From a virus (Duplodnaviria > Caudoviricetes), in the IMG/VR virus record IMGVR_UViG_3300037247_001086, positions 1-63,894 of that record: DNA of 63,894 nt; one strand, written 5' to 3'. Under the pieces are notes generated by a model, which was given only the letters and a program-made list of their open reading frames with translations, did no database searches and was not told the origin of the DNA. Made by a program: the position numbers and the translations under genes. Each line of letters opens with the position of its first letter. The first letter of the stretch is position 1. Of this stretch, positions 6,110 to 62,430 are shown piece after piece.

Positions 6110-6739
6110 TTAGTACCATCCTTCTAGTTTGTTGTGCTCCCGTTGCACATAGTCTTTCATCCAACCGTCAACGATTCCACCTGTCCGGCGGTGACGGCGA
6201 TACAGCGCCAGCAGCTCTTTCATCTCGGGCCAGTTGTCCGAACAAATCGTCGGCCAGATGTCCACATAGATGAGATCGAAGTGACGGCCCTGGATTGGCG
6301 GCTGTTTGCCATCAGCCAAAATGATCCGGAGCTTCTTGTGATGGACATGAGGAGCTACCAACTCGATAACAGCCGGTTCTATCTCTAGTACCGTGACGCT
6401 CCTTACTTCCTTCTTATGGCACATAGCCAAGCTAAGCATGCCAAGGCCGAGACCGACCACGAGAACGTCACCAGCGGCTTTCTGGAGTGCATCGTAATTA
6501 CTGTTATGCTCCATCGGCGTGTCGCTCATCCAGACCTCGTCCCAAGATGGGTCGGCACCGACATCCCGAACTTGTCTCATGATGCAATATGTTCCAGGCG
6601 GGACATATGTCAGCTCGTTGGCCATCAGATCCCGAACAGTGTCTTTTTCCTTGGTGCGGTGTGTGATATAGAAGGAACCAGAGCCGCCACGTTTCGTCTC
6701 CGGTATGACTTTGGTCATGTCAGGGAATAAGCATGTCAT
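6110..6739 (-). CDS. Spermidine-synthase-like SAM-dependent transferase
   Basis: WMSDTPME, GDVLVVGLGLG, VTVLEI, FDLIYVDIW motifs. Confidence 0.7.
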   Translation of the reverse strand: MTCLFPDMTKVIPETKRGGSGSFYITHRTKEKDTVRDLMANELTYVPPGTYCIMRQVRDVGADPSWDEVWMSDTPMEHNSNYDALQKAAGDVLVVGLGLGMLSLAMCHKKEVRSVTVLEIEPAVIELVAPHVHHKKLRIILADGKQPPIQGRHFDLIYVDIWPTICSDNWPEMKELLALYRRHRRTGGIVDGWMKDYVQREHNKLEGWY

Positions 6740-8443: not shown

Positions 8444-8503
8444 GACCTACCTCATCAGCGCCAGACGGTCAGTTCTGACGGACGCCCTTGTGGGCGTTTC
8501 GGC
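8444..8503 (-). ncRNA. Type II hammerhead ribozyme HH2
   Basis: Minus strand: gcc-GAAA-cgccc acaa gggcg-TC^-cgtcaga actgaccg tctggcg-CTGATGA-ggt-a-ggtc. Confidence 0.9.
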
Positions 8504-8628
8504 TACGATAGAATCTTCACCATGTAAGCAAAGGCTTTCTCGTAGGTCTGTACGCCATATCGCTCCGGGTCTGCAACTGTGCGACGAGCGTAGTATGCTG
8601 CGGCTTTCTGGATCTGTCCCTTAGTCAT
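8503..8628 (-). CDS. 41-aa micro-protein between HH3 and HH2
   Basis: Hand translation MTKGQIQKAAAYYARRTVADPERYGVQTYEKAFAYMVKILS; AAGGAG RBS; TAG abuts HH2. Confidence 0.6.
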   Translation of the reverse strand: MTKGQIQKAAAYYARRTVADPERYGVQTYEKAFAYMVKILS

Positions 8629-8648
8629 TACTCTTCTCCTTCGATATA

Positions 8649-8707
8649 TGACCTGCCTCATCAGGCTACCGGCGGTCAGTCCGGCAACTACGCAAAAGCG
8701 TTTCGGC
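8649..8707 (-). ncRNA. Type II hammerhead ribozyme HH3
   Basis: Minus strand: gcc-GAAA-cgc tttt gcg-TA^-gttgccgg actgaccg ccggtagc-CTGATGA-ggc-a-ggtca. Confidence 0.88.
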
Positions 8708-8872
8708 TAGTTGAACCGAGGCGAGGGGTTATCGGGCTGGCGATCTTCGCCAGGTTTCGTTCCTCGTTCCGGTGGAGTGCCTTGCAGCGGGGGCTCCCAT
8801 TTGTTGTGGCTTCCGGCTGGTCTACCGCTTGGCTTGCTTGATTGGCTTTGGCCCTTTCCCTTCCCTGTTCCC

Positions 8873-8913
8873 ACTTACAATGTAAGTATACAGCGTCCCA
8901 ACAAGGAAAACAA
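8873..8913 (-). promoter_or_regulatory. Sigma70-type promoter with palindromic operator over the start site (copy 1)
   Basis: TTGTTT (8908-8913)-17 nt-TATACT (8885-8890); ACTTACA-A-TGTAAGT palindrome; duplicated near 43187-43226. Confidence 0.75.
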
Positions 8914-8965
8914 GGGTTTTTAGGGTACTCCGAAAAGTATTTTCTATTTACAAGTAGATTGTTTG

Positions 8966-9745
8966 TTAATCTAAAGGGGAGAGAAGTTCCCAGAATACGT
9001 TTTCTGAGGCTTCAGGATATGGCCCAGCTAAAATTAGACGTAACCATTCAGAACTAAAAATGTTCTCGAAAGTCTCTACAAGTTTGTCGGGGATACGCTG
9101 TTCCTTTTTATTAACGCGATTGAACATGGCTCTTTTCATATGTTGGCCGTATGCTCGAACTGTTTTCCATCGCTTATGCAATTCTCTATTGAGCTCATCA
9201 TATTTCCATTCGTTCTCTCCGTGATATATTTTGCGTCTAAGAGCCCCATGTGATTGATTAGGTGTGCTGAGAAGTACAACACCTTTTGGATGCATACGAT
9301 TTACGAGATTATCCAAAAGAATTAAGCCTGCCTGATGAGAAATGTGTTCTAGAGATTCGAAGAATAGCACCAGGTCCAACAGTTTAGACGTTGGAAGCTG
9401 AGGATTGTCGGCGAGATTTTGTTGGATAAATTGGAATCCTATTCGTTCAGCCATCATCGAACTAATAGGTATTTCTTTAGAAAGGTCGTCAACATCTACA
9501 GCAATATAGCTGGCAAGTATGTCATCTTTTTTGGCGTAATATCCCTTTATCAAAACTTGAAGAGAGGTAGCGAATCCACAACCAATATCCATTACATGGA
9601 TAGGTCTCGAACGTTCTCGCGCCATATTCATCATTTTATGAGCGGCTACTTGAAAACGTAACATATGAACCAGATCTTCCGGCCACCATTTGTATTGACT
9701 GAGATGATCCAATAATGGTCTGCGATCATTAAAGATTGTTCTCAT
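8966..9745 (-). CDS. Class I SAM-dependent methyltransferase
   Basis: VMDIGCG, IAVDVD, FESLEH, LLSTPN motifs; last gene of the modification operon. Confidence 0.8.
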   Translation of the reverse strand: MRTIFNDRRPLLDHLSQYKWWPEDLVHMLRFQVAAHKMMNMARERSRPIHVMDIGCGFATSLQVLIKGYYAKKDDILASYIAVDVDDLSKEIPISSMMAERIGFQFIQQNLADNPQLPTSKLLDLVLFFESLEHISHQAGLILLDNLVNRMHPKGVVLLSTPNQSHGALRRKIYHGENEWKYDELNRELHKRWKTVRAYGQHMKRAMFNRVNKKEQRIPDKLVETFENIFSSEWLRLILAGPYPEASENVFWELLSPLD

Positions 9746-10878
9746 AGGAGGTCTCCTAGCAGTTTGACAAACTGTTCAACGTAGATGTCTATCTCATCTT
9801 CCTCTTCAAAGGTGAAGGTCGGAAGAAAGATGATTTCCCGCTCCAGTTGGTCGGCGTTGAGTAAGCTGGTGGCGTTGGCTCCTCCCAAGAACAGCATCCG
9901 GTAGAAAGCGCGGGTGTTGCTGGCTGGCATCTCCAGTCCTCGCTTCTCGAGCTTTTGTTTCATGTCCGTGGATCCCGGGATGCGAACGGCGTATTCATAC
10001 CATGCGCCTCTGTCGATTTTTGGATGAGGAAGCGCCAGCGGTTGGACATCTTCCAATTTGGTGGTGAGATATCGAAGCTTACGCTGGCGCAGTCGGATGA
10101 ATTCTGGCAGCCGTTGTAGATGATATGAAGCCAACGCGGAACTCAACGGACTGATCCGCAACTTGAGGCCCAGTCCAGTCAACGATAGTTCCGGTTCTGG
10201 CTTTACATCCTCACCGGCCAGCCGTCGGACGTTGACCAGCTCTGCGGCCCGTCTGAAAATTTCAGGGTCGTCGGTGGAAAGCAAGCCGCCTTCTCCACCT
10301 GACATCATCTTGAGAGTCTGGAGGCTGAAGGCCGCGACATCCCCAAACGTCCCGACATGTCTACCATCGATAGTGGCACCATGAGCGTGAGCACAATCCT
10401 CTATCACCTTGAGGCTGTGACGCTGGGCGATATCCATGATGGCGTCCATGTCGGCGGGATGTCCACCGACATGTGTCACCGTGATGGCGATGGTGCGGGG
10501 TGTAATCTGTTCCTCTATTTTGTCCGGATCGATGTTCCCGGACTTCAGCTGGACATCACAGAATTTGGGCCGGAGACCTGCGTACCATGCAGCCGTAGCG
10601 GTCGCCCAGAAACCGTATCCACCCATGATTACTTCTGATCCCTCTGCGCCCGCACGTGGGGGAAGCGCCGGATAGTTCTGAATACCGTGATATGCAGCCC
10701 AAAGAGCAACTGAACCGGAGCAAACTCCTATGACATATTTGGCTGGTTGGAAGAAGGCAAAGTCCTCCTCTAGATCCCGTGTTATGGAATCCTCCCCGTA
10801 ATTCAGTGAGGATTCTTCTAGGGCGTCGAGGATAAACTCCCCGAGCTCATCTGTGATACGTGGCCATTTGTTCAACAT
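9742..10878 (-). CDS. DegT/DnrJ/EryC1/StrS PLP-dependent aminotransferase
   Basis: IEDCAHAHG and FSLQTLKMMSGGEGG (PLP lysine). Confidence 0.92.
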   Translation of the reverse strand: MLNKWPRITDELGEFILDALEESSLNYGEDSITRDLEEDFAFFQPAKYVIGVCSGSVALWAAYHGIQNYPALPPRAGAEGSEVIMGGYGFWATATAAWYAGLRPKFCDVQLKSGNIDPDKIEEQITPRTIAITVTHVGGHPADMDAIMDIAQRHSLKVIEDCAHAHGATIDGRHVGTFGDVAAFSLQTLKMMSGGEGGLLSTDDPEIFRRAAELVNVRRLAGEDVKPEPELSLTGLGLKLRISPLSSALASYHLQRLPEFIRLRQRKLRYLTTKLEDVQPLALPHPKIDRGAWYEYAVRIPGSTDMKQKLEKRGLEMPASNTRAFYRMLFLGGANATSLLNADQLEREIIFLPTFTFEEEDEIDIYVEQFVKLLGDLL

Positions 10879-11834
10879 AAGCCAACCGGCCCTCCCACTT
10901 CCATAGATTTGTAGATGCCCTGAATGACAGCCACCACCTGACGCCCTTCCTCAGCGGTGACCGCCGGAGGCCTTCCTTCCTTGATAGCCTCTAAGAAGTC
11001 AGCGATCTGACAGGTGTGTGGGCGTCGGTATTTCAGCTGATGATATGTCGATCGCGGCAAAGTCCAGACATGATTGTATCCTGTTAAGTGATCCATGGTG
11101 TCGATACTGACAGTATGTCCGTTCTCTCCGGTGACAGAGACGCTATTCAAACGCAGCGGCGGGTCGTGACTGATGGACGTTCGGAGCGTGGCCAAGGGTC
11201 CGTTCTCAAATCGTATTACAGCGACCACGTTGTCTTCCATCTCAGCGATCCTCTGATGAGTGAGGTTGTGCGTATATCCGAAGACTTCCACTGGCTTGCC
11301 CATGAACCAGAGGAGAAGATCGATGACATGAGGAGCCTGCTGCATCAATACGCCTCCGCCGGATCCTTCCCAGGTTTGTCTCCACTCAGCTCTGTCGAAA
11401 TCCTCCTCTGTCCTACGGTCTTCAACAACGGCGCTTCCCAGGATGATTCTGTTTCCCAATGCCCCGCCATCGATGGCTTCTTTAATGGCGAGTGTGGCGG
11501 GCAACCAGCGTCGCTGAGACACAACGGACAGAACCGTATCGGCTGCTTTAGCCATTGCTATCATCTTATCAGCGTCTTCTGTGGTGGTGGCCAGCGGCTT
11601 TTCGACAAGTACATGAAGACCACAACTGGCGGCAGCAATGGCAAATCGAGCGTGAGTGGGCGGCGGCGTACAGATAAAAATGGTGTTGATGTGTTGATGA
11701 GCTGCTTCCAGCAATAACGATTCGGCCGATCCATCCAAACCTGAAGTATTTAGAGCAACAGGGAGGCCCAGCTCCTTCAAAGCTTCCGCGTGTTGTCGGG
11801 CGGCTGCCCCTGTTCCGATAATCCCAATCCTCAT
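10872..11834 (-). CDS. Gfo/Idh/MocA NAD(P)-dependent sugar/inositol oxidoreductase
   Basis: IGIIGTG, ICTPPPTH, HVLVEKP, GGGVLM..PH.ID motifs. Confidence 0.92.
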   Translation of the reverse strand: MRIGIIGTGAAARQHAEALKELGLPVALNTSGLDGSAESLLLEAAHQHINTIFICTPPPTHARFAIAAASCGLHVLVEKPLATTTEDADKMIAMAKAADTVLSVVSQRRWLPATLAIKEAIDGGALGNRIILGSAVVEDRRTEEDFDRAEWRQTWEGSGGGVLMQQAPHVIDLLLWFMGKPVEVFGYTHNLTHQRIAEMEDNVVAVIRFENGPLATLRTSISHDPPLRLNSVSVTGENGHTVSIDTMDHLTGYNHVWTLPRSTYHQLKYRRPHTCQIADFLEAIKEGRPPAVTAEEGRQVVAVIQGIYKSMEVGGPVGLC

Positions 11835-12367
11835 GGTTGTCTCTCTAACCATTCCCGCCACCAGATATTGCTGAAGGCGTTGGGCCGGATGCCTAGGACA
11901 TGAGCTAGGGCGGCTGTGCCGCTGATATGTCGGAGCCGTCGGACGATCAGAGCGCTGAGCAAACTGGAACGGTTGCGGCCTGCCTCACAGTAGATCAGGA
12001 CGCTGCCTCCGTTGTAGACGAGTCTGTTGGTGACGCGGGTGGCTATCTCCTCCAATTGATTTGCGATGTAGCTTCGGAATATTCCGTCGGGCATCGGAGC
12101 ATAGATATAGGTCAACAGAGGAAGAGTAGCTTCTCCCCATCCTTCGAAGAATGGATCCGATGGGGATACCAATCCGACCACGGTATGGATTTTCAGCTCC
12201 TCGCAAAGTAATGTCTTCGCCTCATCGGAATGGTGATGAAGCTTACCACGCTGATATAGTACGTTGGGCAAGATCTCGTACAGTTTGATCCGTATCGCCT
12301 TCCCGTCGGACGGGCTGTGAGAGGTCTTCGGTCGCCAGATAGTCATAACGGATATCGCTCCAGACAT
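11831..12367 (-). CDS. Cys-based (PTP/DSP, CX5R) phosphatase
   Basis: PMPDG acid loop and VLIYCEAGRNRS; start uncertain (12367 or 12346). Confidence 0.8.
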   Translation of the reverse strand: MSGAISVMTIWRPKTSHSPSDGKAIRIKLYEILPNVLYQRGKLHHHSDEAKTLLCEELKIHTVVGLVSPSDPFFEGWGEATLPLLTYIYAPMPDGIFRSYIANQLEEIATRVTNRLVYNGGSVLIYCEAGRNRSSLLSALIVRRLRHISGTAALAHVLGIRPNAFSNIWWREWLERQP

Positions 12368-13283
12368 ATCCGTGCGATGTCAGCACGGTTCCTAATTCAT
12401 CCCGCGTGGTGCGCCAGCCTGACACTTCTCCTCTACATACAGCGGGCATCAATTTCTGTCGAGCCGCCCACATAGCCTCGCCGAGATCGACGTGTTTCCT
12501 GATCTTGTCATGATACATCAGCTCTGAATCGTTGGAGCGGCCAGGGTATTGTTTGCCTCCTTTGTACGACTGTTTGAAGTCACAGCAGAATACTTCGAAC
12601 CGGAACAGGTCTAAGTCCAAATCGTAATTTTCGGCTAGCCGCGCCAACGATTTCTGTACAACGAGATTGGTGAATTCTATCATATGCGGTGAATTGTCAT
12701 AGGCATCCAGATTGAGATTGGGCCATAAGTCCGTCAGTGTGACTCGTGGGCTCCAGCCTCCTTTGGGAAGGATGTCAGGCAGCGTGATAGGCGCGTCACA
12801 GTAACGTTCATAACACTGGAGGAGTTTCCGGATAGCGTACCGGCCAGCGCCATAGACGACGCTGTCTACGGTTGCCCAGACGGGCAAGAACGCCCGTTTG
12901 GGATCGGGAGGAAGTACGTCCATGACCCGTCCATAGCTGTATACCCATTCACGATACGACATGAAATACTTGGCTAATTTTACGGGTGTCCTCACGGCCC
13001 GACGCTCCCGACGAAACTGAAGCTTCGACCAGTTCTCCTTAATCCATCCTGGGAATTCCTCACTATGCTCGTGGAATCGTTTCCAAGGCCATTCCCGCCA
13101 GATGAACTCAGCGGTCGGGACATTGTAGACAGCGACATAGCAGCCGATCCGCCAGATTTTCTCGTCCAGCGGAACGTCCTTGATCATTTCCCCGACACAA
13201 CGCATATGAGGATCCGGCCCGCCAGCAGCTAAATCGGAACGGATGTGCTCGGCAAAGGCGTCCCAGAGTTGATTGTTATCCAT
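12243..13283 (-). CDS. Amino acid:DNA transferase (aGPT-Pplase2/ADDT-like)
   Basis: FRRERR, GAGRYA and E..CCDFKQ..GKQYPG pattern of HhH-glycosylase-fold transferases; next to kinase and TS homologue. Confidence 0.7.
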   Translation of the reverse strand: MDNNQLWDAFAEHIRSDLAAGGPDPHMRCVGEMIKDVPLDEKIWRIGCYVAVYNVPTAEFIWREWPWKRFHEHSEEFPGWIKENWSKLQFRRERRAVRTPVKLAKYFMSYREWVYSYGRVMDVLPPDPKRAFLPVWATVDSVVYGAGRYAIRKLLQCYERYCDAPITLPDILPKGGWSPRVTLTDLWPNLNLDAYDNSPHMIEFTNLVVQKSLARLAENYDLDLDLFRFEVFCCDFKQSYKGGKQYPGRSNDSELMYHDKIRKHVDLGEAMWAARQKLMPAVCRGEVSGWRTTRDELGTVLTSHGYVWSDIRYDYLATEDLSQPVRREGDTDQTVRDLAQRTISAW

Positions 13284-13878
13284 CTAGCCCCTCCACAACC
13301 TCAATGAGCTGATCAAACGCCTGTTCATAGTTTAGAATCTGGAAGCGCAGGTCTCCGGCCTCGGCTTTGCGAAGTTCTCCGATACGTTTGATTTCTTGAG
13401 CATGTTTCCCTTCCATATCACTGCTGCCAGGGTATCCCTTGGGCGTGCGCCCGCCGCTGCGTTTGAGGACGCGCTGATAACAGACTTCCAGCGGCGTGTC
13501 TAGGAACAGGAAGGTCATTGGGAAATCCGTGGCCAGCCGAACCCAACGGCTCCAGATGCTGGTGACAATGAGACCTTCGAACATGACGTGATGGCCAGCC
13601 ACAGCCCACTTGCGTACTTGAGCATCGACAGCGTCCATGGTATTGCCCTTGCCACCATGCTCTAAAAATCGTTTGTGTAACCGGCCCGTAATGTTGTCTA
13701 CGCCTCCCCCTTTAATAGCGTCGTCGTACCGGCCCAGCACCCAGAGATTGTTCGGTAGCCTGTAACCCATAATATGACCACCTTCATCAGTGATCTCCAC
13801 CCCCTTATAGTGGTTGACCAATTGACGGCCTAGATGGGTCTTGCCGGAACCTGATGTTCCTCTGATGTTGAGAATCAT
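13276..13878 (-). CDS. P-loop kinase, 5-hmdU DNA kinase-like
   Basis: ILNIRGTSGSGKT, VLGRY, GGVD, VMFEG, FLDTPLEVC..R..R. Confidence 0.75.
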   Translation of the reverse strand: MILNIRGTSGSGKTHLGRQLVNHYKGVEITDEGGHIMGYRLPNNLWVLGRYDDAIKGGGVDNITGRLHKRFLEHGGKGNTMDAVDAQVRKWAVAGHHVMFEGLIVTSIWSRWVRLATDFPMTFLFLDTPLEVCYQRVLKRSGGRTPKGYPGSSDMEGKHAQEIKRIGELRKAEAGDLRFQILNYEQAFDQLIEVVEGLDG

Positions 13879-14777
13879 CCGAGAAATTCCATACCGGCTT
13901 GGCTCCAAGCATTAAATCTGAGATTCCGATAAGGATGTGTTCTGTCCCGGTAGAACTGAAGGAAATCGCTAGCGAATTTCAAAAATGGAGGAGCTTCCAT
14001 CATCGTACCGTCCAGGATGTGATAGATGATTTTTGCATAGGTGACATGGTCTGTTTTCAATTCGTTGTCGGGGAATAGGAACGGCGCGGGCAAATGAACA
14101 ATGGGTTCGTCCATGGCAGCCAGCATATTCTCAGTGAGCGTGGCCGCTGGCCCGTCAAGATAGAGATGGAGGCTGTCGCTCCAATGGATCTGTGTTCCTA
14201 GACCGACGCCTAAGAGCATTGCAAGATACTGTTGGAAGACGGAAAATTCGGGGAGATTGACAGCGTGTAAGCCCCAATGAAGATCATTGCTGCGGTTGTG
14301 GACGGTCATGTGAAGTTTTTCGTCTCGGAGTTTGAACATGATCAAATCATTGCAGGGCGGGTCTTTCGTATCAGCTTCCAAATCTTCATCACGCCAGATG
14401 GATAAAACGGCTCGACGGTCAGTTGATTCATTTCTGAGTCGCGCTATTAGAGCCGGGACTTGCTGGACAATCCGAGCACCATAGCTGCCATAGAATGTGA
14501 TTCCGTCATCGCTGAAGTCTTTGATCCGTTTGTTGTATGGTTCCAAGTGACGGACAAGATCTGAACCGGCTATTAGCGCCAACGCCTCACTGAGGGCCAG
14601 CCAAGGGTTGAGCTTCCGGCCAGGGATAATTTGGACGACGTTCAGCGGACAGATTTCGGTGACGACATGGAGCAGTTCGCGGGTAGGCCGTCCACGTACC
14701 TCCACCTCAGGCGCTTTCAGGAGGGCTTTGAGCTGTTGACGGTAGATGTCACTAGGGTGGCCGGTGAAGTGGATCAT
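13875..14777 (-). CDS. Thymidylate synthase homologue (likely dUMP hydroxymethylase)
   Basis: YGARI, DRRAV, DPPCN, RSNDLHWG..N, SLHLY; Asn at the dUMP/dCMP specificity position. Confidence 0.85.
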   Translation of the reverse strand: MIHFTGHPSDIYRQQLKALLKAPEVEVRGRPTRELLHVVTEICPLNVVQIIPGRKLNPWLALSEALALIAGSDLVRHLEPYNKRIKDFSDDGITFYGSYGARIVQQVPALIARLRNESTDRRAVLSIWRDEDLEADTKDPPCNDLIMFKLRDEKLHMTVHNRSNDLHWGLHAVNLPEFSVFQQYLAMLLGVGLGTQIHWSDSLHLYLDGPAATLTENMLAAMDEPIVHLPAPFLFPDNELKTDHVTYAKIIYHILDGTMMEAPPFLKFASDFLQFYRDRTHPYRNLRFNAWSQAGMEFLG

Positions 14778-15133
14778 CGTACCGGCTCTAGGCGCTCCCA
14801 GGCCAACAGTATAAAATCTAGGAGATGTTCAGCGTGTCTCTTTTGCATCTTGGTTTCGTCCGGTTGTTCAAATTCTTGGCCTACAGTCTTGACAACAATA
14901 TCATGAGTATTCTGGATTTTGAACAGGAGGACTAAACAGTTGAAAACGGCGTCAACGATCTCTTCCTCAATATTGTTCACGGTGTTAGCGATCATACAGG
15001 CGTTAGTCGGTAGGCCGTCTACGAATTGATCTGGCAGAGTATATTCTACAGCGTGTTCGTCATACCGTTGACGAAGCAACGCTTCCTGTGCGGGAGTAAT
15101 TAAATTTCCTCCCAATGGTATCAGCGTGTCCAT
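14774..15133 (-). CDS. MazG-like all-alpha dNTP pyrophosphohydrolase
   Basis: EEEIVDAVFN acidic motif; context (nucleotide pool adjustment). Confidence 0.5.
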   Translation of the reverse strand: MDTLIPLGGNLITPAQEALLRQRYDEHAVEYTLPDQFVDGLPTNACMIANTVNNIEEEIVDAVFNCLVLLFKIQNTHDIVVKTVGQEFEQPDETKMQKRHAEHLLDFILLAWERLEPVR

Positions 15134-15134
15134 T

Positions 15135-15986
15135 TCAGGCCAAGTTTTGCACATGCGGCTTGTACCTCCTTCTGCGTCCTTCTCCCCGACTGAACTTGAT
15201 GTACTTGGCATATTCACAGCAACAATGCTCTATGTCACCAAGCACTAGCGGTTGGATCCGTTCCGGTTGATTAGCATGTAACGCTTCACAGAATCTGTAC
15301 ATTGAAGCATAGCTTGAAGGCGCTGTTTTGCCCCAATCATCAAGTGAATTGAGCATGTGTATTCCCAGTTGTGCTCCGGGGCCGAGATAGGTGAAGTCAT
15401 TCTCCTTAAAAGGCAGGGCTCCGATAAGCAGCAAATCTCGGAAGACTTGAAGGGCAATGAATGGCCCTATACCATGTGGCTGTTGTAACGTTTTCCAAAC
15501 CTCCTCAAGAGCCGAACAATTTTGGATTTGTTTGTCGCCGTTACCATACCGAAACCAATCATAGAGTTCGTCAAGAACTTTGATCAATTGAGTTTTACGA
15601 TCAGTCACATGTAGAGTTTGAAGAACGATGTAGGCTGGGCTGTGTGGCTTGGGTGCGTCCATGATTCTCTGAACCCATTTGTCACGGTTGCGGCCCCAGC
15701 CACCATAGCCAAACAAGCTCACTTCGTTGAACCATTTGATATTGTTCACCAACCGGTAGAGCATCGTTCGCCAGAGAACTTCTCGGAATCCCCAGCGTGG
15801 CTTCGGGCTCATTAAATTGACATACCAGCGTGTTCCAAAATCATCAGCCCGTCGGATATTGCAGAAGTGATAGTCTTGGAGGATAAGATCATTTGTCCAA
15901 GGCGGCGGGTTGCCCGATTCCTTTCGGATACGGATCAACTCACGTTCTTGAACAAATGACCAGAAGCCTTCAATAGAAGGTAGCAT
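15135..15986 (-). CDS. 5-hmdU DNA kinase helical domain / aGPT-Pplase1 protein
   Basis: FVQERE.I..R.E.G.PPPWTND.IL..Y.FCN..R.DD, GIGPFIA.Q, GPGA, DIEH..CEY.KY signature. Confidence 0.85.
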   Translation of the reverse strand: MLPSIEGFWSFVQERELIRIRKESGNPPPWTNDLILQDYHFCNIRRADDFGTRWYVNLMSPKPRWGFREVLWRTMLYRLVNNIKWFNEVSLFGYGGWGRNRDKWVQRIMDAPKPHSPAYIVLQTLHVTDRKTQLIKVLDELYDWFRYGNGDKQIQNCSALEEVWKTLQQPHGIGPFIALQVFRDLLLIGALPFKENDFTYLGPGAQLGIHMLNSLDDWGKTAPSSYASMYRFCEALHANQPERIQPLVLGDIEHCCCEYAKYIKFSRGEGRRRRYKPHVQNLA

Positions 15987-16019
15987 CCCTGTCCCCTTTC
16001 CTTTTGCCGGACTCTACTG

Positions 16020-16277
16020 CTATGTGTATCGGAGCAGGTAGAAGTCGAAGTATCCCTGATACAGCTTAGGAGCCTCCTTCTTCGTGAGTCCGAGTTTTCG
16101 TAATGCGCGATTGGCTAACGATGAAGCGGTCGCTTGTTTTGGATGCCGACCCTTCATTACTTCGCGCATCCGAATGTGGTGCGCTTTCACTTTGGACGAA
16201 GCACGGCGGGCTTCGCTCATGTGGCGACGCTGTTCCTCACTGAACGGTTTGAGCTTAGTTCCTTTTGGCATTCCCAT
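16020..16277 (-). CDS. Small basic protein with NUMOD3-like DNA-binding motif
   Basis: PFSEEQRRHMSEARR. Confidence 0.55.
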   Translation of the reverse strand: MGMPKGTKLKPFSEEQRRHMSEARRASSKVKAHHIRMREVMKGRHPKQATASSLANRALRKLGLTKKEAPKLYQGYFDFYLLRYT

Positions 16278-16284
16278 ATTGATT

Positions 16285-16321
16285 AGTATAACTTGTTTTT
16301 TAGTGTAAAGTAAAGTATAGT
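16285..16321. promoter_or_regulatory. Overlapping divergent sigma70-type promoters
   Basis: Plus: TTGTTT (16293)-17-TATAGT (16316); minus: TATACT at 16285-16290 with TTTACT upstream; at the strand switch. Confidence 0.65.
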
Positions 16322-16486
16322 AAGGTTCCTAAAGCGAGGAGCCGCCCGCAGGGAAACGAGCGGCTCCGACAGGAAAGGGGAAACCGTCAATGACTTATCA
16401 CTTTTGGAGAACCCGCCGGAATCCCAAGAGTGTCATCGAGGGCTGCTCCCTATTGACAGCTTAGCGTAGTAGGAGGGTATTTACAA

Positions 16487-16927
16487 ATGGGTGATCCGCA
16501 AATGGTACGAGGAATTGTAGAACGGTTGAAGACTATCAGCGAGGAAGTGATCACGCTGGGAGCCGAGGAGGAAATGCTGTGGAAACAATTCTACGGTTTC
16601 ATCGATGATGCTGTGGGTGCAGATCAACCCTATCGCTGGACACATCCAGATCTCAAAATGACTATTGGAAGGGTCATGGCTGAAAATAGTCCGCGCTTGG
16701 ATGTGGGGCGATTGGAAGAGATTCTGACCGATGATGAGTGGCGGCTCTGTACGAAGCAAGTTCGGATTTTTGATGCCGACCGGCTGACCGCTGAAGTGGC
16801 CGCTGGCGGTATCAAGAAAGATGATGTTCAAGCGGCTACCTCGCAGAAGCCCCCAACATCACGAAAGCACTTTCGATCGGCCAGCAAGGATGAGCTGAAG
16901 AAGCTAGAACAAGACAAGTTATCGTGA
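16487..16927 (+). CDS. Hypothetical protein
   Basis: AGGAGG RBS; first gene of the replication arm. Confidence 0.65.
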   Translation: MGDPQMVRGIVERLKTISEEVITLGAEEEMLWKQFYGFIDDAVGADQPYRWTHPDLKMTIGRVMAENSPRLDVGRLEEILTDDEWRLCTKQVRIFDADRLTAEVAAGGIKKDDVQAATSQKPPTSRKHFRSASKDELKKLEQDKLS

Positions 16928-48369: not shown

Positions 48370-51126
48370 ATGACCACTGATGAAATAGACCCCGCTGGTC
48401 GTCCTGGCGATACAGCCGTTGTCGACAGAGATCTCATCGACCCGTCCCTCGAAGAAGAATCTCTATTGCCTGGTGCTGAGGCTGGTAAATCCGTTAAGGA
48501 TGTTCCCGAAGAGACAATAGGGCAGTCCGTTCAAGAATTTCCGAAGCAGGTTGGCGCAACTCCCGGAACTACTTCTTTCCAAGATACTCTCATCTGGTTT
48601 ACAGGTCATGCAGCCGACGAATTTGAGGCGTGGGGCCGACGTCATGGCAAAAGGCGCGATAAGCAACTTAGGGATTTTATCGCGACTGAAAGCATGTTCG
48701 CCAGCGCCCTTGGAATCGTTATTATTCGCAACAGCGCCTTCAATTGGGAGGTTTCGGGAGACCCTCAGACGGCTGATATAGCCCATCAAATTCTGATTGA
48801 GGCTAATATGGGTCTCGGTTGGGAAGACTTTATCGCCAAGGTCAGTGCCGATCTGTACACGCAAGATAGCGGAGCATTTATCGAAGTCGTCAGGGACGGA
48901 AGTGACCCCGAAAGTCCTCTTGTTGGTATCAATCATCTGGACGCAGCCCGTTGTTGGCATACTGGCGATCCTACGAAGCCGGTCATCTATCAGGATGTCA
49001 AGAGCAAATATCACCTATTGGATTGGTGGAATGTTGTCACGCTTTCCGAAATGCCTACAGCCATAGAAGGGCTGTACGGTATGCAATTCTGCGCAGAAAC
49101 GCGGCTGATGATGGCGGCTCAAATCATGAAGAATATCGCTATCTATAAAGCCGAGAAATCCGGCGGGCGTAACACGCGGGCCATCCAACTGATCCAAGGG
49201 CTGACGACTGAACAGGTGAACGACGCCATTGCAGACTTACGAAATCGTGCTGATGCTCAAGGTTTCATGCGCTATATGCAGCCGGTGATTATTGGAAGTC
49301 ATGACCCGCAGGCGAAATTGGATGTTAAGACGTTGGAACTGGTCAGCTTGCCAGATGGTTTTGATGAGGACACGGCGTTCCGTCACTATATCGCTATGAT
49401 CGCGATGGCTTTTGGCGCTGATTATCAGGAGTTTGCTCCTCTTCCAGGTGGCAACCTGGGGACAAGTATGCAGAGCCAAGTCCTTCATGATAAGACCAGA
49501 GGCAAGGGGCCAGGGTTGTTCATGAAGCTGATTCAAAACGCCATGAATCAGAGGATTCTGCCGCGAAATGTGAAGTTCGAGTATGCGGAACAGGATTTGG
49601 AGGCGGAGAGAACTGAGGCTGAGGTCTCAAAGATTCGCGCCGAGACTAGAAAGATTCAGATTGAATCAACGGAGATTAATCAGGCCGAATCTCGTCAAAT
49701 GGCGGTGGACTCAGGCGATCTCCCTCAAGAATTGTTTGATGTAAATCCTGGCGGAGATATTACTCCGGTTGACACGGTTGTCCCATCGGGTGAGCCTCAT
49801 CACGCAAAAGGGGAGTTGGAGGTCTCGCCTTCTTCTAACCCTTTTGGCTCGATGACGACCGACGTTGGTACGAGACAGAAGACTGAACCGGCCAGGGCAG
49901 GCCCATTTGAAGATGACCGATTGGTAGCGGAAGGCCGTCTCCAGCGGGCTATCCTCCGAGCATTCCGTAAACATTTTGAGGCTGTCAAGAAGCGGCTCCG
50001 TCGTGAACGACGGGATGATCCTCGTTTTTCTAAAAAGGAATTGTTGGGAGATCTTGTCAATGATGAGGAGTTTTGGGGTTTGCGAAAAGAAGAGTTCATG
50101 GCAGAAGTTGGTGACCAGCCGCTGAATCTTCTGTTGGAAGGCGGACAACAGGCTGAAGCTCTAGGGCTTGTTGTTGATATGTCATTGGTCAATCAAGAAG
50201 CGTTGCGATTCAATCGACAATTCACGAATAGATGGTGGCAGGAACTTTCAACTCAGACGAGAGATGGATTGCGTATAGCGATTTCGACACATATTGAAAC
50301 GGGTGGGCCACTTCGGACTCTCAACAAGAATCTTGAGCCATTATTCGGTAAGGCGCGAGCTGAAGTTGTAGGTCGAACAGAAGTGACGCGGATGTTTGCT
50401 GAGGGAAATCGCATTGCTTATGGGCAGGCGGGTATCCAAGAGGTGGAATGGCGGACAGTTCGTGATGCCCATGTAGACCCTATTTGTGATGATCTTCATG
50501 GCCAACGGATGCCGCTTGGCCAAGAGCAAATAGTACCGCCAGCTCATCCTCGATGCCGTTGTTGGATTGCTCCTGTAGTGGGGGAGAGGCCAGTGACGGA
50601 GACCGCTTCGAGAGAATTTGAATCTGGTCATGAAGCAGACGCTTGGGGGAATGAACATTTCAGTAGAGTTTTGGGGAGAGAAAGTATCTATACAGAAGCA
50701 GAAAGAGTTGCAATCCTTGAATATCAAAGTACTGCGTATGCCGGGATAAATCGAGATATTCGAGCGGGATTTATTGACAATAGAACTGTTAGAGGTATAG
50801 ATTCTGCTATTGCAAAAGGGGCGGTTCCTGAGGATATTATAGTTTGGAGAGCGATTCGAGAAGCTCCTGAAAGTATGTTAAAATCTGATTTGGTGGGAGG
50901 CATAATCCAAGACAGAGCGGTTATGTCAACGTCATTGTTGCGGAATGTAGCGTCTGATTTTGGAGGAGATATTCTTTTGAGGATAAAAGTTCCTAGAGGT
51001 ACGCCTGCTTCATATTTTGCTGGGGGGCAGGCAGAATTACTGTTGGGAAGAGACACAGTTCTTCGTGTGTTGGAAGTAAGGAGAGTCGGAAGAAGACTTG
51101 AAATTTTAGCTGAGGTACAATTATGA
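48370..51126 (+). CDS. Portal protein fused to MuF head-morphogenesis domain and C-terminal ADP-ribosyltransferase
   Basis: Portal-like N-terminus after TerL; RAEVVGRTE..VDPIC..PPAHPRCRC (MuF); Y..IN..R, VWR, MSTSL, QAELLL (R-S-E ART). Confidence 0.85.
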   Translation: MTTDEIDPAGRPGDTAVVDRDLIDPSLEEESLLPGAEAGKSVKDVPEETIGQSVQEFPKQVGATPGTTSFQDTLIWFTGHAADEFEAWGRRHGKRRDKQLRDFIATESMFASALGIVIIRNSAFNWEVSGDPQTADIAHQILIEANMGLGWEDFIAKVSADLYTQDSGAFIEVVRDGSDPESPLVGINHLDAARCWHTGDPTKPVIYQDVKSKYHLLDWWNVVTLSEMPTAIEGLYGMQFCAETRLMMAAQIMKNIAIYKAEKSGGRNTRAIQLIQGLTTEQVNDAIADLRNRADAQGFMRYMQPVIIGSHDPQAKLDVKTLELVSLPDGFDEDTAFRHYIAMIAMAFGADYQEFAPLPGGNLGTSMQSQVLHDKTRGKGPGLFMKLIQNAMNQRILPRNVKFEYAEQDLEAERTEAEVSKIRAETRKIQIESTEINQAESRQMAVDSGDLPQELFDVNPGGDITPVDTVVPSGEPHHAKGELEVSPSSNPFGSMTTDVGTRQKTEPARAGPFEDDRLVAEGRLQRAILRAFRKHFEAVKKRLRRERRDDPRFSKKELLGDLVNDEEFWGLRKEEFMAEVGDQPLNLLLEGGQQAEALGLVVDMSLVNQEALRFNRQFTNRWWQELSTQTRDGLRIAISTHIETGGPLRTLNKNLEPLFGKARAEVVGRTEVTRMFAEGNRIAYGQAGIQEVEWRTVRDAHVDPICDDLHGQRMPLGQEQIVPPAHPRCRCWIAPVVGERPVTETASREFESGHEADAWGNEHFSRVLGRESIYTEAERVAILEYQSTAYAGINRDIRAGFIDNRTVRGIDSAIAKGAVPEDIIVWRAIREAPESMLKSDLVGGIIQDRAVMSTSLLRNVASDFGGDILLRIKVPRGTPASYFAGGQAELLLGRDTVLRVLEVRRVGRRLEILAEVQL

Positions 51127-56503: not shown

Positions 56504-56973
56504 AGGTTATCAAAGTACGTATTAGGCGCGGCGCGGTGGGTGAGTCACAGATGGCCTACCCTGCCCGCTATCGAGCGGAGGAAGTGGACCGCAACGGCCT
56601 GGGGCCGCTCAACGTGATGCAGTCCGGCGCGTACTCCGGCCACATCTCGCGGGGTGGCCCTGAGGCGTGGTGCATCATCGTTCTGGATGATGTCCTGGCC
56701 GACGAGTACGCGCTCGACCCCGACATGGAGATCGTCACGGCAGCGCAGGCCGACACGCTCATGGAGACGTGGCGCGTCGAGAAGGGCGAGACAGAAGAGG
56801 TCGTGAAAGACCCTGACAGAATCGCCGCTATCGGCGTGAAGCAAGCCACGGGCACGGCTCTCACGGCGGAAGACCTAAAGGCGCTGGACGTGAACGACCC
56901 AACGCCTGGGGTGAACAAGCGGCTGGGGAGTCTCGTAGACAAGCTAAAGGTGGTAGCTCCGGTTGAACTCTAG
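56500..56973 (+). CDS. Hypothetical protein
   Basis: AGGAGG RBS; coupled. Confidence 0.6.
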   Translation: MKVIKVRIRRGAVGESQMAYPARYRAEEVDRNGLGPLNVMQSGAYSGHISRGGPEAWCIIVLDDVLADEYALDPDMEIVTAAQADTLMETWRVEKGETEEVVKDPDRIAAIGVKQATGTALTAEDLKALDVNDPTPGVNKRLGSLVDKLKVVAPVEL

Positions 56974-57544
56974 GGTGACCATCTCGATACCCACGAGGGG
57001 GTCTATCCGCGCCGAGACGATGGAGTGGACGCTACGCGCCTTCGTGGAACTTGCGCCAGATGTGCAGGTGGACATTGTGAGCGAGAACGTCCCGCTGGAG
57101 CACGCCCGCAACCTACAGGCGCAACGCTTTCTCGCCTCGCCCTCCACGCATCTATTCCTGTTGGATGCTGACTGCGTACCGCAGGCGGGAACGATACAGA
57201 AGCTCTTGGCCTACGAGCTGCCGGTCGTCGCTGCGCCGCACCCGACACTCAAGGGCGCGGAGCGCGTCGTCATGGCCCTAACGCGGAACAACGGGCACTA
57301 TGAGGCATATACGCCGCCCTTAGGACTACAGAAGGTGGACGCCGTGGGGGGCTCCGGGCTGCTTATCGAGCGTCGGGTGCTGGAGAGCTACGGCCCGCCG
57401 TACTTTCGCTGCGAATACGACGACCAAGGAATGCTGTATCGGAGTGAGGACTTCTGGTTCTGCGAACGGGTGAAGGAGCAGGGCTTCGATGTTTGGTGTG
57501 ACTTCAGCCTGGAGCAGCAGCACATCAAAGAGGTGGCGGTCTAA
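56963..57544 (+). CDS. GT-A fold glycosyltransferase
   Basis: SIPTRG, ARN, LDAD, SEDFWFC, H. Confidence 0.8.
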   Translation: MNSRVTISIPTRGSIRAETMEWTLRAFVELAPDVQVDIVSENVPLEHARNLQAQRFLASPSTHLFLLDADCVPQAGTIQKLLAYELPVVAAPHPTLKGAERVVMALTRNNGHYEAYTPPLGLQKVDAVGGSGLLIERRVLESYGPPYFRCEYDDQGMLYRSEDFWFCERVKEQGFDVWCDFSLEQQHIKEVAV

Positions 57545-58269
57545 TGGCAAACGTTCTAAGTGTCGAGCCCGGTGCTACTGACAAACACTACAAACATTCC
57601 GGGTTCACCACTACCATTGACGCCAGCTACGCGTCGCCAGCCGACTCTCCCACAGGCATCACCTGGGATGGTACAAATGTCATCTCCGCCGACAGCAATG
57701 CCGACAAGCACTACAAACACTCGGGGTTCAGTTCCACTATCGACGCCAGCTACGCATCGCCAGAGGACTCTTCTTGGGGCATCACCTGGGACGGTACGAA
57801 TGTTCTCTCAGCCGATTTCAAATCTGCTGCCAACAAGCACTACAAGCATTCGGGCTTCACCACGACCATCGACGCCAGTTACACCAGTCCTTCCACCTCT
57901 CCCCGTGGCATAAGCGAAGATGGTACGGATGTCCTCTCCGCCGACAGCAATGCCGACAAGCACTACAAGCACTCGGGCTTCTCCGCCACCATCACCAGCA
58001 GCTACGCCAGCCCAGCAGCAACTCCTCGTGGCATCACTTGGGACAGCGCAAATGTCATCTCTGCTGATAGTGCTGATGACAAGCACTACAAGCACTCGGG
58101 CTTCTCCGCCACCATCACCAGCAGCTACGCTTCACCTGGCGCTGCCCCTTCGGGCATCACCTGGGATGGGCGACACGCTGGGGTGGTCGATGATGGTCAA
58201 GAGTTTGCTGGCACTCGAGTGGAAACCCGACAGCTTTACCACTTGGCCCGAAAAGTGGTGGCCTATTAG
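57544..58269 (+). CDS. Five-repeat beta-propeller protein
   Basis: Five 41-43 aa repeats NVxSAD..DKHYKHSGF..TI..SY.SP...P.GITWDG. Confidence 0.8.
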   Translation: MANVLSVEPGATDKHYKHSGFTTTIDASYASPADSPTGITWDGTNVISADSNADKHYKHSGFSSTIDASYASPEDSSWGITWDGTNVLSADFKSAANKHYKHSGFTTTIDASYTSPSTSPRGISEDGTDVLSADSNADKHYKHSGFSATITSSYASPAATPRGITWDSANVISADSADDKHYKHSGFSATITSSYASPGAAPSGITWDGRHAGVVDDGQEFAGTRVETRQLYHLARKVVAY

Positions 58270-58648
58270 TATGATTACTGAACCGCTCCTTCCGATGGAA
58301 ACCCCGACGAGCTGGATGATCCTTCAGGGTGACCAGCACCGTCGACCGTTGGAGTTCACTGCTGGCATCACAGGAGAACAGTCATCTTTAGATTGGATAG
58401 GCCCAATCCGTGAGCTGATACATCGAGTGGTTCGTAGCTTCCCACGGTTGTTAGTAGCGCCTGTGGCCCTTCTTCTGAAGGCTGTGGTGTGGGTGCTCCG
58501 CTTTGCCTCGGTCCATAAGGGGAGAGGACTGCTACACTGGCACTTTATCAAACTCCCCAGTTTTTTGGGGTTTTTTATTGGGGGAATGAACTGATGGCCA
58601 TGTACTGTCCCAGAATTTTACGGGGGTTTGAGGTGGTAATTTTCTAAA

Positions 58649-59635
58649 ATGTTGAACTATTATCTCTGGCAGTATCAAGCTAAAGCAGAACCGTTCCCTG
58701 ATATTTCTGTTCCTGATTACGGTTGGTTTGTTCAGGGACCAGATGTTGTACGAGCTCCAACGAGACCTGAAGGCGAGATTGTAGCTCCTTTAGGCGATCA
58801 TGAAGATCTCATTTCTGACTTTAGCTGGTTTGTTCAAGAGCCAGACGTCATGCGCCCGCGCCACCAAACGAGCGAAGGGCTGTTTACAAGAGGACGAGAT
58901 AATTCGGAATTAGCTCCGTCGTTTGATTGGTTTGTCCAACATCCAGAGCCTCTGCCGCGTCCGACAAGGCCGGACGGAATGTTTGCCCTTGTTGAGTTTA
59001 GTGTTCCAATTCCTCCAGCTATTCCCGACATTGATTGGAACATCCAGGAACCCGATGTCGTCAGGCCGCGCCACCAAACGGACGAAGGGTTGTTCGTCCG
59101 TGGGCGTGATAATACGGAACTGGCTCCCGAGTTCGATTGGTTCGTTCAAGAACCTGATGTGATGCGGGCTCCTACCCGACCAGAGGGTACGTTTGTTCGT
59201 GGTCTTGATAATATAGAGATTGCCCCTGACTTTGGCTGGTTTGTCCAGCAGGCCGATGTCATTCGTTCTAGGCATCTGGTTCGGCCAGGATTATTCGTTC
59301 AAGACCTGTTAGTCATCACTGTTGTTCTGGACTTCTCTTGGTTCATTCAGGGGCCAGATGTAGTGAGGCGTCCGACAAGGCCGCATGGATTTGAAGCACG
59401 TCCTCTCTTGATTCTGGTTGCGCCTGTCCTAGATCTAGTTTTTGAGATTAGAGTTTGTCTCCAATTAGATGAGTTGGAAATTAACCGACTGCTACCGAAT
59501 CCAAGCGGGTTCCTTGCCATGAGAGACAATGAGCCAGACGCCAGTGGCTATATCAAAGAGGATGACGGTTGCGGTTCTTTGTCCGGAATCGATGATGATT
59601 TGCCATCACCGAGCGGCTACAAGAAACCTCCTTAG
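58649..59635 (+). CDS. Repeat protein, seven ~34-aa units
   Basis: F.WFVQ.PDV.R units alternating PTRPxG and RHxxxxG. Confidence 0.75.
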   Translation: MLNYYLWQYQAKAEPFPDISVPDYGWFVQGPDVVRAPTRPEGEIVAPLGDHEDLISDFSWFVQEPDVMRPRHQTSEGLFTRGRDNSELAPSFDWFVQHPEPLPRPTRPDGMFALVEFSVPIPPAIPDIDWNIQEPDVVRPRHQTDEGLFVRGRDNTELAPEFDWFVQEPDVMRAPTRPEGTFVRGLDNIEIAPDFGWFVQQADVIRSRHLVRPGLFVQDLLVITVVLDFSWFIQGPDVVRRPTRPHGFEARPLLILVAPVLDLVFEIRVCLQLDELEINRLLPNPSGFLAMRDNEPDASGYIKEDDGCGSLSGIDDDLPSPSGYKKPP

Positions 59636-59702
59636 AAAACGAAGCTGTTTAGGTTCAAGAAGCTGTACTTCGGATCTGAAATATAGTAAGGTAACATCTA
59701 CA

Positions 59703-60638: not shown

Positions 60639-60922
60639 GCTTATCTCCAGGAACAAGCGAACCGCCACCATTGGAAGAATGGAACAAGCCGATAGAGCTT
60701 TTAGGAGCGGAGGAAAACATGGGTATTAGAGAAGCGATTGCTCTGGGAATTGAGAGAGCGACAGGTATGGGCGGCTGGTTGCGTGTACGAGCAGCGTTGG
60801 CTTTCGGTATGACTTTTATCGGAGGTTTTTATCTACTTGTGAATCAAGAAATGCCACCGAGTGAATTCAATATCCTTTGGAGTGGCTCGATGGCCTACTA
60901 CTTTGGATCTCGTGACAAGTGA
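60635..60922 (+). CDS. Two-TM membrane protein, holin-like
   Basis: Hydrophobic helices ending AYYFGSR. Confidence 0.5.
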   Translation: MSLSPGTSEPPPLEEWNKPIELLGAEENMGIREAIALGIERATGMGGWLRVRAALAFGMTFIGGFYLLVNQEMPPSEFNILWSGSMAYYFGSRDK

Positions 60923-62428: not shown

Positions 62429-62430
62429 GA

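Follow-up and report, generated by a model that had tools for sequence, protein, structure and literature searches.

Which base does a phage make when its thymidine hypermodification genes are encoded together with a dehydrogenase and an aminotransferase of the kinds that act on sugars and cyclitols? The question is raised by positions 8966-15986 (minus strand) of the IMG/VR virus record IMGVR_UViG_3300037247_001086, a linear sequence of 63,894 bp with an estimated completeness of ~60% that was analysed as a whole and is called the window below. At this locus nine co-directional open reading frames (ORFs; g1 to g9) abut without intergenic space, and the operon very probably serves to replace the thymidine of the phage DNA by a hypermodified base. 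For the fullest explanation that we can offer, i.e. a methylated inosamine-like aminocyclitol (or amino-polyol) carried on the C5-methyl of thymidine, we consider the chances evenly balanced. The nine genes are as follows.

15135-15986, minus strand: g1, HMUDK_hel protein (Pfam PF18723, 1.4e-41), counterpart of gp50 of phage PaMx11
14774-15217, minus strand (14774-15133 from ATG, 119 amino acids): g2, small conserved protein with 46 homologues at E<=1e-3
13875-14777, minus strand: g3, thymidylate-synthase (TS) homologue, predicted deoxyuridine monophosphate (dUMP) hydroxymethylase (Pfam PF00303, 1.6e-15)
13276-13908, minus strand (13276-13878 from ATG): g4, 5-hydroxymethyl-deoxyuridine (5-hmdU) DNA kinase (Pfam PF18748 HMUDK_HMUD1, 7.3e-10, 39.1 bits against a cut-off of 27)
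12243-13283, minus strand: g5, group:DNA transferase of the AADT/ADDT family, in a divergent phosphatase-linked clade (Pfam PF18724, 7.9e-14, 52.4 bits against a cut-off of 26.2)
11831-12367, minus strand: g6, Cys-based phosphatase of the dual-specificity (DSP) type (Pfam DSPc 2.4e-5, 24.6 bits, below the cut-off of 33.5)
10872-11861, minus strand (10872-11834 from ATG): g7, Gfo/Idh/MocA NAD-dependent dehydrogenase, predicted for secondary alcohols of sugars or cyclitols (Pfam PF01408, PF22725, PF02894)
9742-10878, minus strand: g8, DegT/DnrJ/EryC1 aminotransferase dependent on pyridoxal phosphate (PLP) (Pfam DegT 2.5e-70, 237.9 bits; FSLQTLK)
8966-9745, minus strand: g9, class I methyltransferase dependent on S-adenosylmethionine (SAM) (Pfam PF13489 Methyltransf_23, 9.3e-11)

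Counted from the in-frame ATGs at 15133, 13878 and 11834, from which we infer that g2, g4 and g7 start (an Atlas record of g2 also begins at ATG 15133), the junctions from g1 to g9 are a gap of 1 nt followed by overlaps of 4, 4, 8, at least 104 (g5/g6), 4, 7 and 4 nt, which suggests coupled translation. The initial annotation, made from the sequence without database searches, had described nine genes that overlap or lie 1 nt apart, and this layout of nine minus-strand ORFs bears it out. Eight of its nine domain calls were also borne out: the HMUDK-helical protein, TS homologue and P-loop kinase by the Pfam matches listed, the Gfo/Idh/MocA, DegT and SAM methyltransferase proteins by Pfam matches above the cut-offs, g5 likewise by Pfam, and the CX5R phosphatase by motif and fold. 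A Logan assembly of a marine sediment metagenome, probably built from the same reads, showed 0 differences and 0 gaps against positions 8500-16500 of the window, and a scan for promoters and terminators gave counts not above those of shuffles. That metagenome, probably the source of the record, is the one public DNA run in which the sequence is listed; no RNA run is listed.

The hypermodification core and its transferase

The first genes of the operon are recognizable by comparison with PaMx11. In BLASTP, g3 is 41% identical to gp51 (5.4e-40), g4 is 33% identical to gp49 (9.1e-20), and g1, a member of what we take to be the former aGPT-Pplase clade 1, is 25% identical to gp50 over 296 amino acids (2.8e-16). 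The g3 protein also matches phrog_5131 (1.2e-53) and, as a TS family member, is predicted to supply 5-hmdU by acting as a dUMP hydroxymethylase; g4 carries the P-loop (Walker A) motif GTSGSGKT. According to Table 1 of PMC8989533, gp49 is a 5-hmdU DNA kinase, and that paper describes the functions of the PaMx11 and M6 proteins and the reconstitution of the PaMx11 pathway. The remaining upstream gene, g2, had been called MazG-like, a call that our searches did not confirm: neither Pfam, PHROG nor NCBIfam holds a family that matches it, Pfam is equally silent on 41 of its homologues, a profile of these 41 against the PDB gives only E=0.89 to 2yxh ('MazG-related protein'), and the predicted structure (pLDDT 89.6) has no Foldseek match at E<=1e-3 and only generic helical hairpins in VIA-align (Z<=9.3). 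Residues R23, Y31, N44, C46, E58, D61, F64 and N65 are invariant in the g2 family, a homologue of which lies between the HMUDK_hel and TS genes of IMG/VR locus L012.

The transferase g5 adjoins g4, with g3 further upstream, so that its operon also encodes the 5-hmdU DNA kinase and a predicted supplier of 5-hmdU. The initial annotation had made its case depend on 12243-13283 being an ADDT homologue, and the score of twice the cut-off upholds this; the match spans residues 64-239 and reaches 53.1 bits in a scan of the whole genome. C234 of g5 is invariant in 30 of 30 sequences, and E230 stands four residues before it (E230-V-F-C-C234), at a position that is Glu or Gln in the clade. An active-site Cys is essential in the AADT/ADDT family (PMC8989533), and PMC11472151 gives Glu243 and Cys247 as the catalytic residues of PaMx11 gp46 and Trp146 and Lys150 as those that hold glycine. 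In an hhalign comparison E230 and C234 fall opposite Glu243 and Cys247, and a Lys of g5 opposite Lys150. Where gp46 has the glycine-binding GPW...K, the g5 clade has an invariant G-R-Y-x-x-x-K; as the hhalign alignment is non-significant, this gives only a hint that the donor of g5 may differ from that of gp46.

Relatives of g5 are numerous in metagenomes. At E<=1e-3 there are 339 homologues, and 50 IMG/VR loci encode relatives, which dereplication at 90% identity reduces to 40 lineages; when the proteins of the operon are searched against them by tblastn, the kinase appears in 39 of the 50 loci. In a quick tree, built after removal of seven of these loci (exact duplicates or short matches) and addition of seven database proteins, g5 groups with P0002, P0003 and P0004 (SH-aLRT 95) inside a phosphatase-linked clade, among subclades linked to a synthase described below. 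Single-protein IMG/VR scans with the window ADDT, DegT and Gfo proteins returned nothing or distant matches only. Among cultured phages, none of 17 matching records reaches 80% coverage as a full-length ADDT-phosphatase relative, and the weak matches (Gordonia CaiB, Microbacterium MO526) were rejected as relatives, being ParB/Tet-type clusters without the phosphatase. A nucleotide search of the operon and the window against 50,697 phage records found no relatives, and neither did the ADDT alignment against 185,579 bacterial and archaeal species genomes, which thus offer neither a prophage nor a clue to the host.

The phosphatase and the inositol-phosphate synthase of the clade

We examined what else is constant around the transferase, and the clearest partner is the phosphatase. 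The g6 protein has a CX5R loop (CEAGRNR) with PMPDG upstream of it, and D94, C127, G130, N132, R133, R161 and N167 do not vary among the 27 sequences compared. Its AlphaFold model (pLDDT 90) matches human dual-specificity phosphatases (DUSP14, DUSP5, VHZ) in Foldseek at E ~1e-8 with TM scores of 0.64-0.79. Thus the loop, the general-acid Asp and the DUSP fold carry the phosphatase assignment, with the Pfam DSPc match remaining sub-threshold; the fold search retrieved generic DUSPs and showed no special likeness to glucan or inositol phosphatases. A DSP match lies just downstream of the ADDT gene in 39 of the 50 loci by tblastn, and the motif CxxG[RKYW]NR follows ADDT on the same strand in 36 of the 40 dereplicated lineages, often in fusion. 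Among the 120 ADDT homologues listed, at least 14 are 482-507 amino acids long, of which at least ten also carry PF00782. The four lineages without the phosphatase motif (L042, L043, L048, L049) form the outgroup of the quick tree. The initial annotation had placed this phosphatase in a kanosamine-like set of three enzymes together with the dehydrogenase and DegT; because it follows ADDT or is fused to it in 36 of 40 lineages, none of which has Gfo or DegT in the locus, this grouping fails, and the phosphatase is a constant partner and hallmark of the ADDT clade that stands outside any Gfo/DegT pathway.

No canonical start lies near the conserved N-terminus of g6 (KLYEILP), the sole ATGs being 104-125 nt inside the ADDT gene (12243-12367), and a +1 shift after '...QPVRRE' of ADDT would recreate a single ADDT-phosphatase protein like that of L003 (503 amino acids); the Logan assembly has the same sequence here. 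Several relatives (L008/L029, L011, L044 and others) encode a second ORF of the ADDT/phosphatase cluster without CX5R a few hundred bases downstream (L008:11701-12243, L011:11714-12316), and in four lineages a Tet_JBP dioxygenase takes the place of the TS homologue beside the ADDT-phosphatase pair.

To characterize the neighbourhood, all ORFs within 7 kb of ADDT in the 50 IMG/VR loci were clustered. The commonest cluster outside the core is a myo-inositol-1-phosphate synthase (Pfam Inos-1-P_synth 5.3e-37; TIGR03450 over its full length at 512 bits), found in 22 of the 50 loci and 18 of the 40 lineages, and every one of these 18 lineages has the phosphatase. It lies directly upstream of ADDT, or with one gene between them, which encodes an FkbM-family methyltransferase, a radical SAM/SPASM protein or a methyltransferase of the g9 family (L002, L009). 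Over whole records the synthase family occurs in 25 of 50, including five of the nine that are at least 90% complete. As this synthase stands upstream of ADDT in 18 of 40 lineages, our data favour a cyclitol as the likeliest donor, and an inosamine over kanosamine. The initial proposal of a thymidine hypermodification operon with an aminated donor is therefore sustained as to the type of operon, by Pfam and homology to PaMx11, and of its two branches the inosamine one is supported by the synthase link and the kanosamine one disfavoured.

The association of the synthase with hypermodification is not mentioned in the searchable literature, supplements excepted. PMC13458397, PMC11955845, PMC13229309 and PMC13697223 contain no passage on 'inositol' or on a cluster-related 'phosphatase', a search for inositol with phage thymidine hypermodification found only glycosyltransferase papers, and one for the synthase in phage DNA modification found none. 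Among cultured phages, an inositol-3-phosphate synthase is present in 19 records (16 Stenotrophomonas, 2 Caulobacter, 1 Ralstonia). In Stenotrophomonas phage Moby (NC_048802, 28981-30231) it lies inside a 7-deazaguanine DNA-modification cluster, flanked by genes for GTP cyclohydrolase, a QueC-like protein, a queuine tRNA-ribosyltransferase homologue and a QueE-like protein; this is a second, independent association of inositol-phosphate synthase with DNA base modification.

Tailoring genes and the predicted base

Three further genes of the operon, g7, g8 and g9, probably belong to the modification pathway as well. In g7 all three Pfam domains are above their cut-offs (PF01408 63.3 bits, PF22725 84.6, PF02894 84.4), and the EKP motif is present in VEKPLA. 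Its best NCBIfam model is the inositol 2-dehydrogenase IolG (TIGR04380), matched over the full length; its best PDB matches are 3q2k and 3q2i, which we take to be WlbA, and it is ~40% identical to cellular proteins named UDP-N-acetyl-2-amino-2-deoxyglucuronate (UDP-GlcNAcA) 3-dehydrogenase by JGI. In g8, S185, Q187 and the Schiff-base lysine K190 are invariant in nine of nine aligned relatives. The glutamine-scyllo-inositol transaminase 7b0d (2.9e-36) and BtrR 2c7t (1.9e-34) rank second and fourth among its PDB matches, interleaved with the sugar-nucleotide aminotransferase 7l7x (7.1e-35); the inosose aminotransferase 5w71 is also among the best solved relatives, further down are perosamine synthases (~4e-32) and NtdA 4k2b (2.7e-18), and the best NCBIfam model is PseC. 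The g8 ORF (378 amino acids) is without the ~20 N-terminal residues (LAxxGGxP...) common to all eight aligned relatives (401-442 amino acids). For g9, full-length homologues are encoded in L012, L009 and L002 (E 1e-35 to 1e-47), these being three of the 50 loci, and in the latter two the gene stands between the inositol-phosphate synthase and ADDT; the g9 family is specific to the ADDT-phosphatase system.

Taken together, these assignments suggest the following route. By homology to PaMx11 and M6, g3 would make 5-hydroxymethyl-dUMP, which is built into DNA, g4 would phosphorylate the 5-hmdU within the polymer, and Cys234 of g5 would attack C6, so that the phosphate is expelled and a nucleophile adds to the exocyclic methylene. 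Because the transferase is followed by or fused to a Cys-phosphatase, with the synthase directly upstream in 18 of 40 lineages, this nucleophile may be a cyclitol-type polyol derived from inositol phosphate and not an amino acid; that the donor derives from inositol we regard as an even call. Inositol would be supplied by the host in the window lineage, since this lineage has no synthase of its own. The phosphate of inositol phosphate would be stripped by g6, either before transfer or from the DNA-bound adduct. DSP enzymes habitually act on polymer-bound phosphates; given this habit and the g6-ADDT fusion, a DNA-bound phospho-adduct, or 5-phosphomethyl-dU itself, is a credible substrate. The dehydrogenase g7 would oxidize a ring CHOH to the ketone, g8 would convert the ketone to an amine by transamination, and g9 would methylate. 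If these points are granted, amination is somewhat more probable before transfer, which is the order of aminocyclitol antibiotic pathways, than on DNA. The result would be an inosamine-like aminocyclitol that bears a methyl group and whose simplest attachment to the C5-methyl is through nitrogen. A cyclitol substrate is favoured by the occurrence of the synthase in the clade, by the methyltransferase family that g9 shares with relatives, by the inosose aminotransferases near g8 and by the inositol 2-dehydrogenase near g7. Extended to the clade, the proposal becomes more tentative, falling somewhat short of an even chance: uncultured phages in which ADDT and the phosphatase are paired or fused, and of which half encode a synthase, would attach cyclitols to thymine, the window lineage making an N-methylated inosamine-thymidine and others an inositol-thymidine on which FkbM or class I methyltransferases, or else radical SAM enzymes, would act.

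The pair of g7 and g8 recurs outside the window, rarely. The closest DegT homologues are P0122 (55% identity) and P0124 (49%) and the closest Gfo homologues P0244 (46%) and P0243 (52%), each a singleton. P0122 and P0244 lie on contigs of 29,190 bp and P0124 and P0243 on contigs of 35,289 bp, the same sizes as those of the ADDT proteins P0002 (56%) and P0004 (53%). From these matching sizes we take it that ADDT, Gfo and DegT co-occur in two more lineages, as co-occurrence and not as adjacency. The other Gfo and DegT relatives are cellular, and a Gfo match is present in 28 of 82 bacterial loci with a DegT relative, and in ~20 of these it immediately precedes that relative in the same orientation. 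As the remaining relatives are cellular and Gfo precedes the DegT relative in many bacterial loci, the pair was probably acquired as a cassette. A metagenome scan with the DegT alignment yielded 80 bacterial loci of a generic kind, from all of which the hmdU core genes were absent, and Pfam on their neighbours was uninformative. In whole records of IMG/VR relatives DegT occurs in three of 50, always far from ADDT; examples are L136 (in the record of L042, 9136-10161) and L137 (in the record of L037), and one lies within a 677-amino-acid open frame that is possibly a fusion.

Several results weigh against an inositol-derived, aminated group. In tblastn neither Gfo nor DegT was found in the hypermodification loci of any of the 50 IMG/VR relatives, although the recurrence of the pair with the hmdU core, which the initial annotation had made a test of its idea, is supported by the two contigs at ~50% identity; co-location on these two is read from their equal sizes, and Gfo-DegT pairs are a common bacterial cassette. 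The window contains neither an inositol-phosphate synthase nor an inositol monophosphatase (IMPase), on a contig that is ~60% complete. In 18 of 40 lineages the phosphatase is present without the synthase, and its substrate may instead be 5-phosphomethyl-dU. The nearest relatives of g7, both solved and cellular, resemble UDP-sugar 3-dehydrogenases, 7l7x, in the top three solved relatives of g8, belongs to a diacetamido-sugar pathway, and all Gfo and DegT scores are far under the equivalog cut-offs (106.8 against 355 for IolG with g7, 154.6 against 423.5 with g8). For g5, hhalign against PaMx11 gp46 gives a probability of 0.07% and BLASTP no match, and the 30-sequence profile finds no PDB chain at E<=1, although the gp46 entries 8Z2M and 8Z2N are there. 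The evidence on the Gfo/DegT substrate is mixed, and sequence comparison alone does not decide between a cyclitol and a nucleotide sugar or sugar phosphate.

A sugar phosphate is the basis of the alternative that survives best, which we nevertheless consider unlikely. In a hexose-phosphate (kanosamine-type) route, g7 would oxidize glucose-6-phosphate or another sugar phosphate at C3, g8 would aminate it, g5 would couple it through the amine, g6 would dephosphorylate it and g9 would methylate it, Gfo and DegT replacing the synthase of the relatives as a second path from glucose-6-phosphate to a phosphorylated donor. This would explain why the window has the phosphatase without the synthase, it fits the constancy of the phosphatase across the clade if the donor is always phosphorylated, and NtdA is among the solved relatives of g8. 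Its match is much weaker, however, than those of the inosose and nucleotide-sugar aminotransferases (7.5e-37 to 1e-34), no named glucose-6-phosphate 3-dehydrogenase is found among the PDB or NCBIfam matches of g7, and in L002 and L009 the g9 family is found together with the inositol-phosphate synthase.

It is rather improbable, in our estimate, that Gfo, DegT and the methyltransferase are passengers whose product, an amino sugar nucleotide, goes into glycans of the virion or the host surface, with the kinase, ADDT and phosphatase alone modifying DNA with a host-supplied donor. The user of such a product would be a glycosyltransferase cluster at the 3' end, 56963-63845 (plus strand, to the contig end), which comprises a weak Glyco_tranf_2_3 match (56963-57544), Polysacc_synt_2 (59529-60638), RmlD_sub_bind (60919-61710), Glycos_transf_2 (62431-63138) and a methyltransferase-like protein (63135-63845). 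This cluster may modify glycans of the virion or the host, and it could be where the DegT product is used instead; the presence in 59529-63845 of Polysacc_synt_2 at 2.4e-71 with RmlD_sub_bind, Glycos_transf_2 and a further methyltransferase counts against our proposal. The resemblance of g7 to UDP-GlcNAcA 3-dehydrogenases, PseC as the best model of g8, the frequency of the Gfo-DegT pair in bacteria (the 28 of 82 loci above) and L012, which has the same core and methyltransferase without Gfo and DegT, all agree with the passenger explanation. In contrast, g7, g8 and g9 form an overlapping series with the phosphatase gene within the operon, ~48 kb from the glycan cluster, the g9 family is specific to ADDT-phosphatase loci, and ADDT, Gfo and DegT seem to travel together on two more contigs.

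Finally, a direct route on the base, in which g7 oxidizes 5-hmdU to 5-formyl-dU in DNA, g8 converts it to 5-aminomethyl-dU and g9 methylates it as in mnm5U of tRNA, is very improbable, since, although the three enzymes would be chemically sufficient and 5-aminomethyl-dU is a real intermediate in PaMx11 (PMC8989533), it would make the kinase, ADDT and phosphatase redundant, all of which are intact and conserved, it leaves the synthase link unexplained, and the usual substrates of Gfo/Idh/MocA and DegT enzymes are secondary alcohols and ketones of rings, as the names of the PDB matches also indicate.

Outside the operon, the window encodes helicases of the SNF2 and DnaB types, a family A polymerase, a UvsX-like recombinase, a large terminase and a portal/head-morphogenesis protein; no tRNA was found in it, and the large terminase, tried as a host indicator, gave matches of only ~22% identity. 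Just downstream of g9, a 61-bp stretch (8856-8916) holds the palindrome ACTTACA-ATG-TAAGT; it is single-copy in the window and has a second copy in the Logan contig, followed there by unrelated sequence. The strand of the operon also encodes, 2.2 kb further downstream, a second SAM methyltransferase (6110-6739, minus strand; Methyltransf_25, 27.1 bits). In a 918-amino-acid head-morphogenesis/minor head protein (48370-51126, plus strand), residues 805-915 match the ADP-ribosyltransferase phrog_3895 (4e-6).

Comparison with known systems

To our knowledge, all known thymidine hypermodifications derive from amino acids or polyamines added to 5-phosphomethyl-dU. The window apparently represents one lineage of a large, uncultured thymidine-hypermodification branch with an ADDT-phosphatase pair, so far undescribed in the searchable literature (supplements excepted), which surveys of metagenomes keyed to the kinase have passed over. 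If the aminocyclitol proposal is true, this would be the first cyclitol-nucleobase conjugate, an antibiotic-type aminocyclitol bound covalently in DNA, and the enzyme types concerned (inositol-phosphate synthase, DSP phosphatase, Gfo/Idh/MocA dehydrogenase, DegT aminotransferase) would be new to the modification of DNA bases. Natural DNA bases would gain a new chemical class with bulky, polyhydroxylated and possibly cationic members, which would matter for DNA packaging, for the resistance of DNA to restriction and to CRISPR nucleases, and for enzymes used as tools to label or protect DNA. The donor range of the AADT family would become much wider, and the phosphatase fusion in hundreds of metagenomic proteins would gain a function.

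The clusters of PaMx11, M6 and ViI (PMC8989533, PMC5889632, PMC11472151) share with the window the TS homologue, the 5-hmdU DNA kinase, HMUDK_hel and an ADDT-family transferase with a Glu...Cys pair, and the gene order of PaMx11 (transferase, tailoring genes, kinase, gp50/HMUDK_hel, TS, HD) is that of the relatives of the window. They differ in the transferase, gp46 and g5 being too divergent for BLASTP or the 30-sequence profile and carrying GPW...K and GRY...K, respectively, and in tailoring, for which those phages have a PLP decarboxylase, a radical SAM isomerase, an FAD lyase and an acetyltransferase, whereas the window has the Cys-phosphatase, Gfo, DegT and methyltransferase, with the synthase in its relatives. 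The main text of PMC8989533 does not mention the latter enzyme classes for such clusters; its Figure 2 and supplementary tables may show them unlabelled.

With WbpB/WbpE (WlbA/WlbC) the window shares an adjacent, overlapping Gfo-DegT pair, the best matches of g7 (3q2k/3q2i and the JGI names) and the proximity of 7l7x to g8. In the window, in contrast, the pair stands in a DNA-modification operon with no N-acetyltransferase or UDP-sugar gene adjoining it, and its identity to cellular relatives is ~40%. The kanosamine systems NtdABC and RifKLM likewise encode a dehydrogenase, a DegT-type aminotransferase and a phosphatase together; the phosphatase of the window has another fold and is inherited with ADDT (in 36 of 40 lineages without Gfo and DegT), and NtdA is a distant match to g8.

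Actinomycete aminocyclitols such as spectinomycin, hygromycin A and streptomycin are made with an inositol-phosphate synthase, an inositol monophosphatase, a myo-inositol dehydrogenase, a glutamine:scyllo-inosose aminotransferase and a methyltransferase. The operon of the window departs from these pathways in that its phosphatase is a DSP-type Cys enzyme and not an IMPase or HAD protein, its predicted acceptor is DNA instead of a sugar, and none of its matches is at the equivalog level. What it has in common with them is the enzyme logic, namely a Gfo/Idh/MocA dehydrogenase, a DegT-family aminotransferase with SxQxxK and a SAM methyltransferase, to which its relatives add the synthase.

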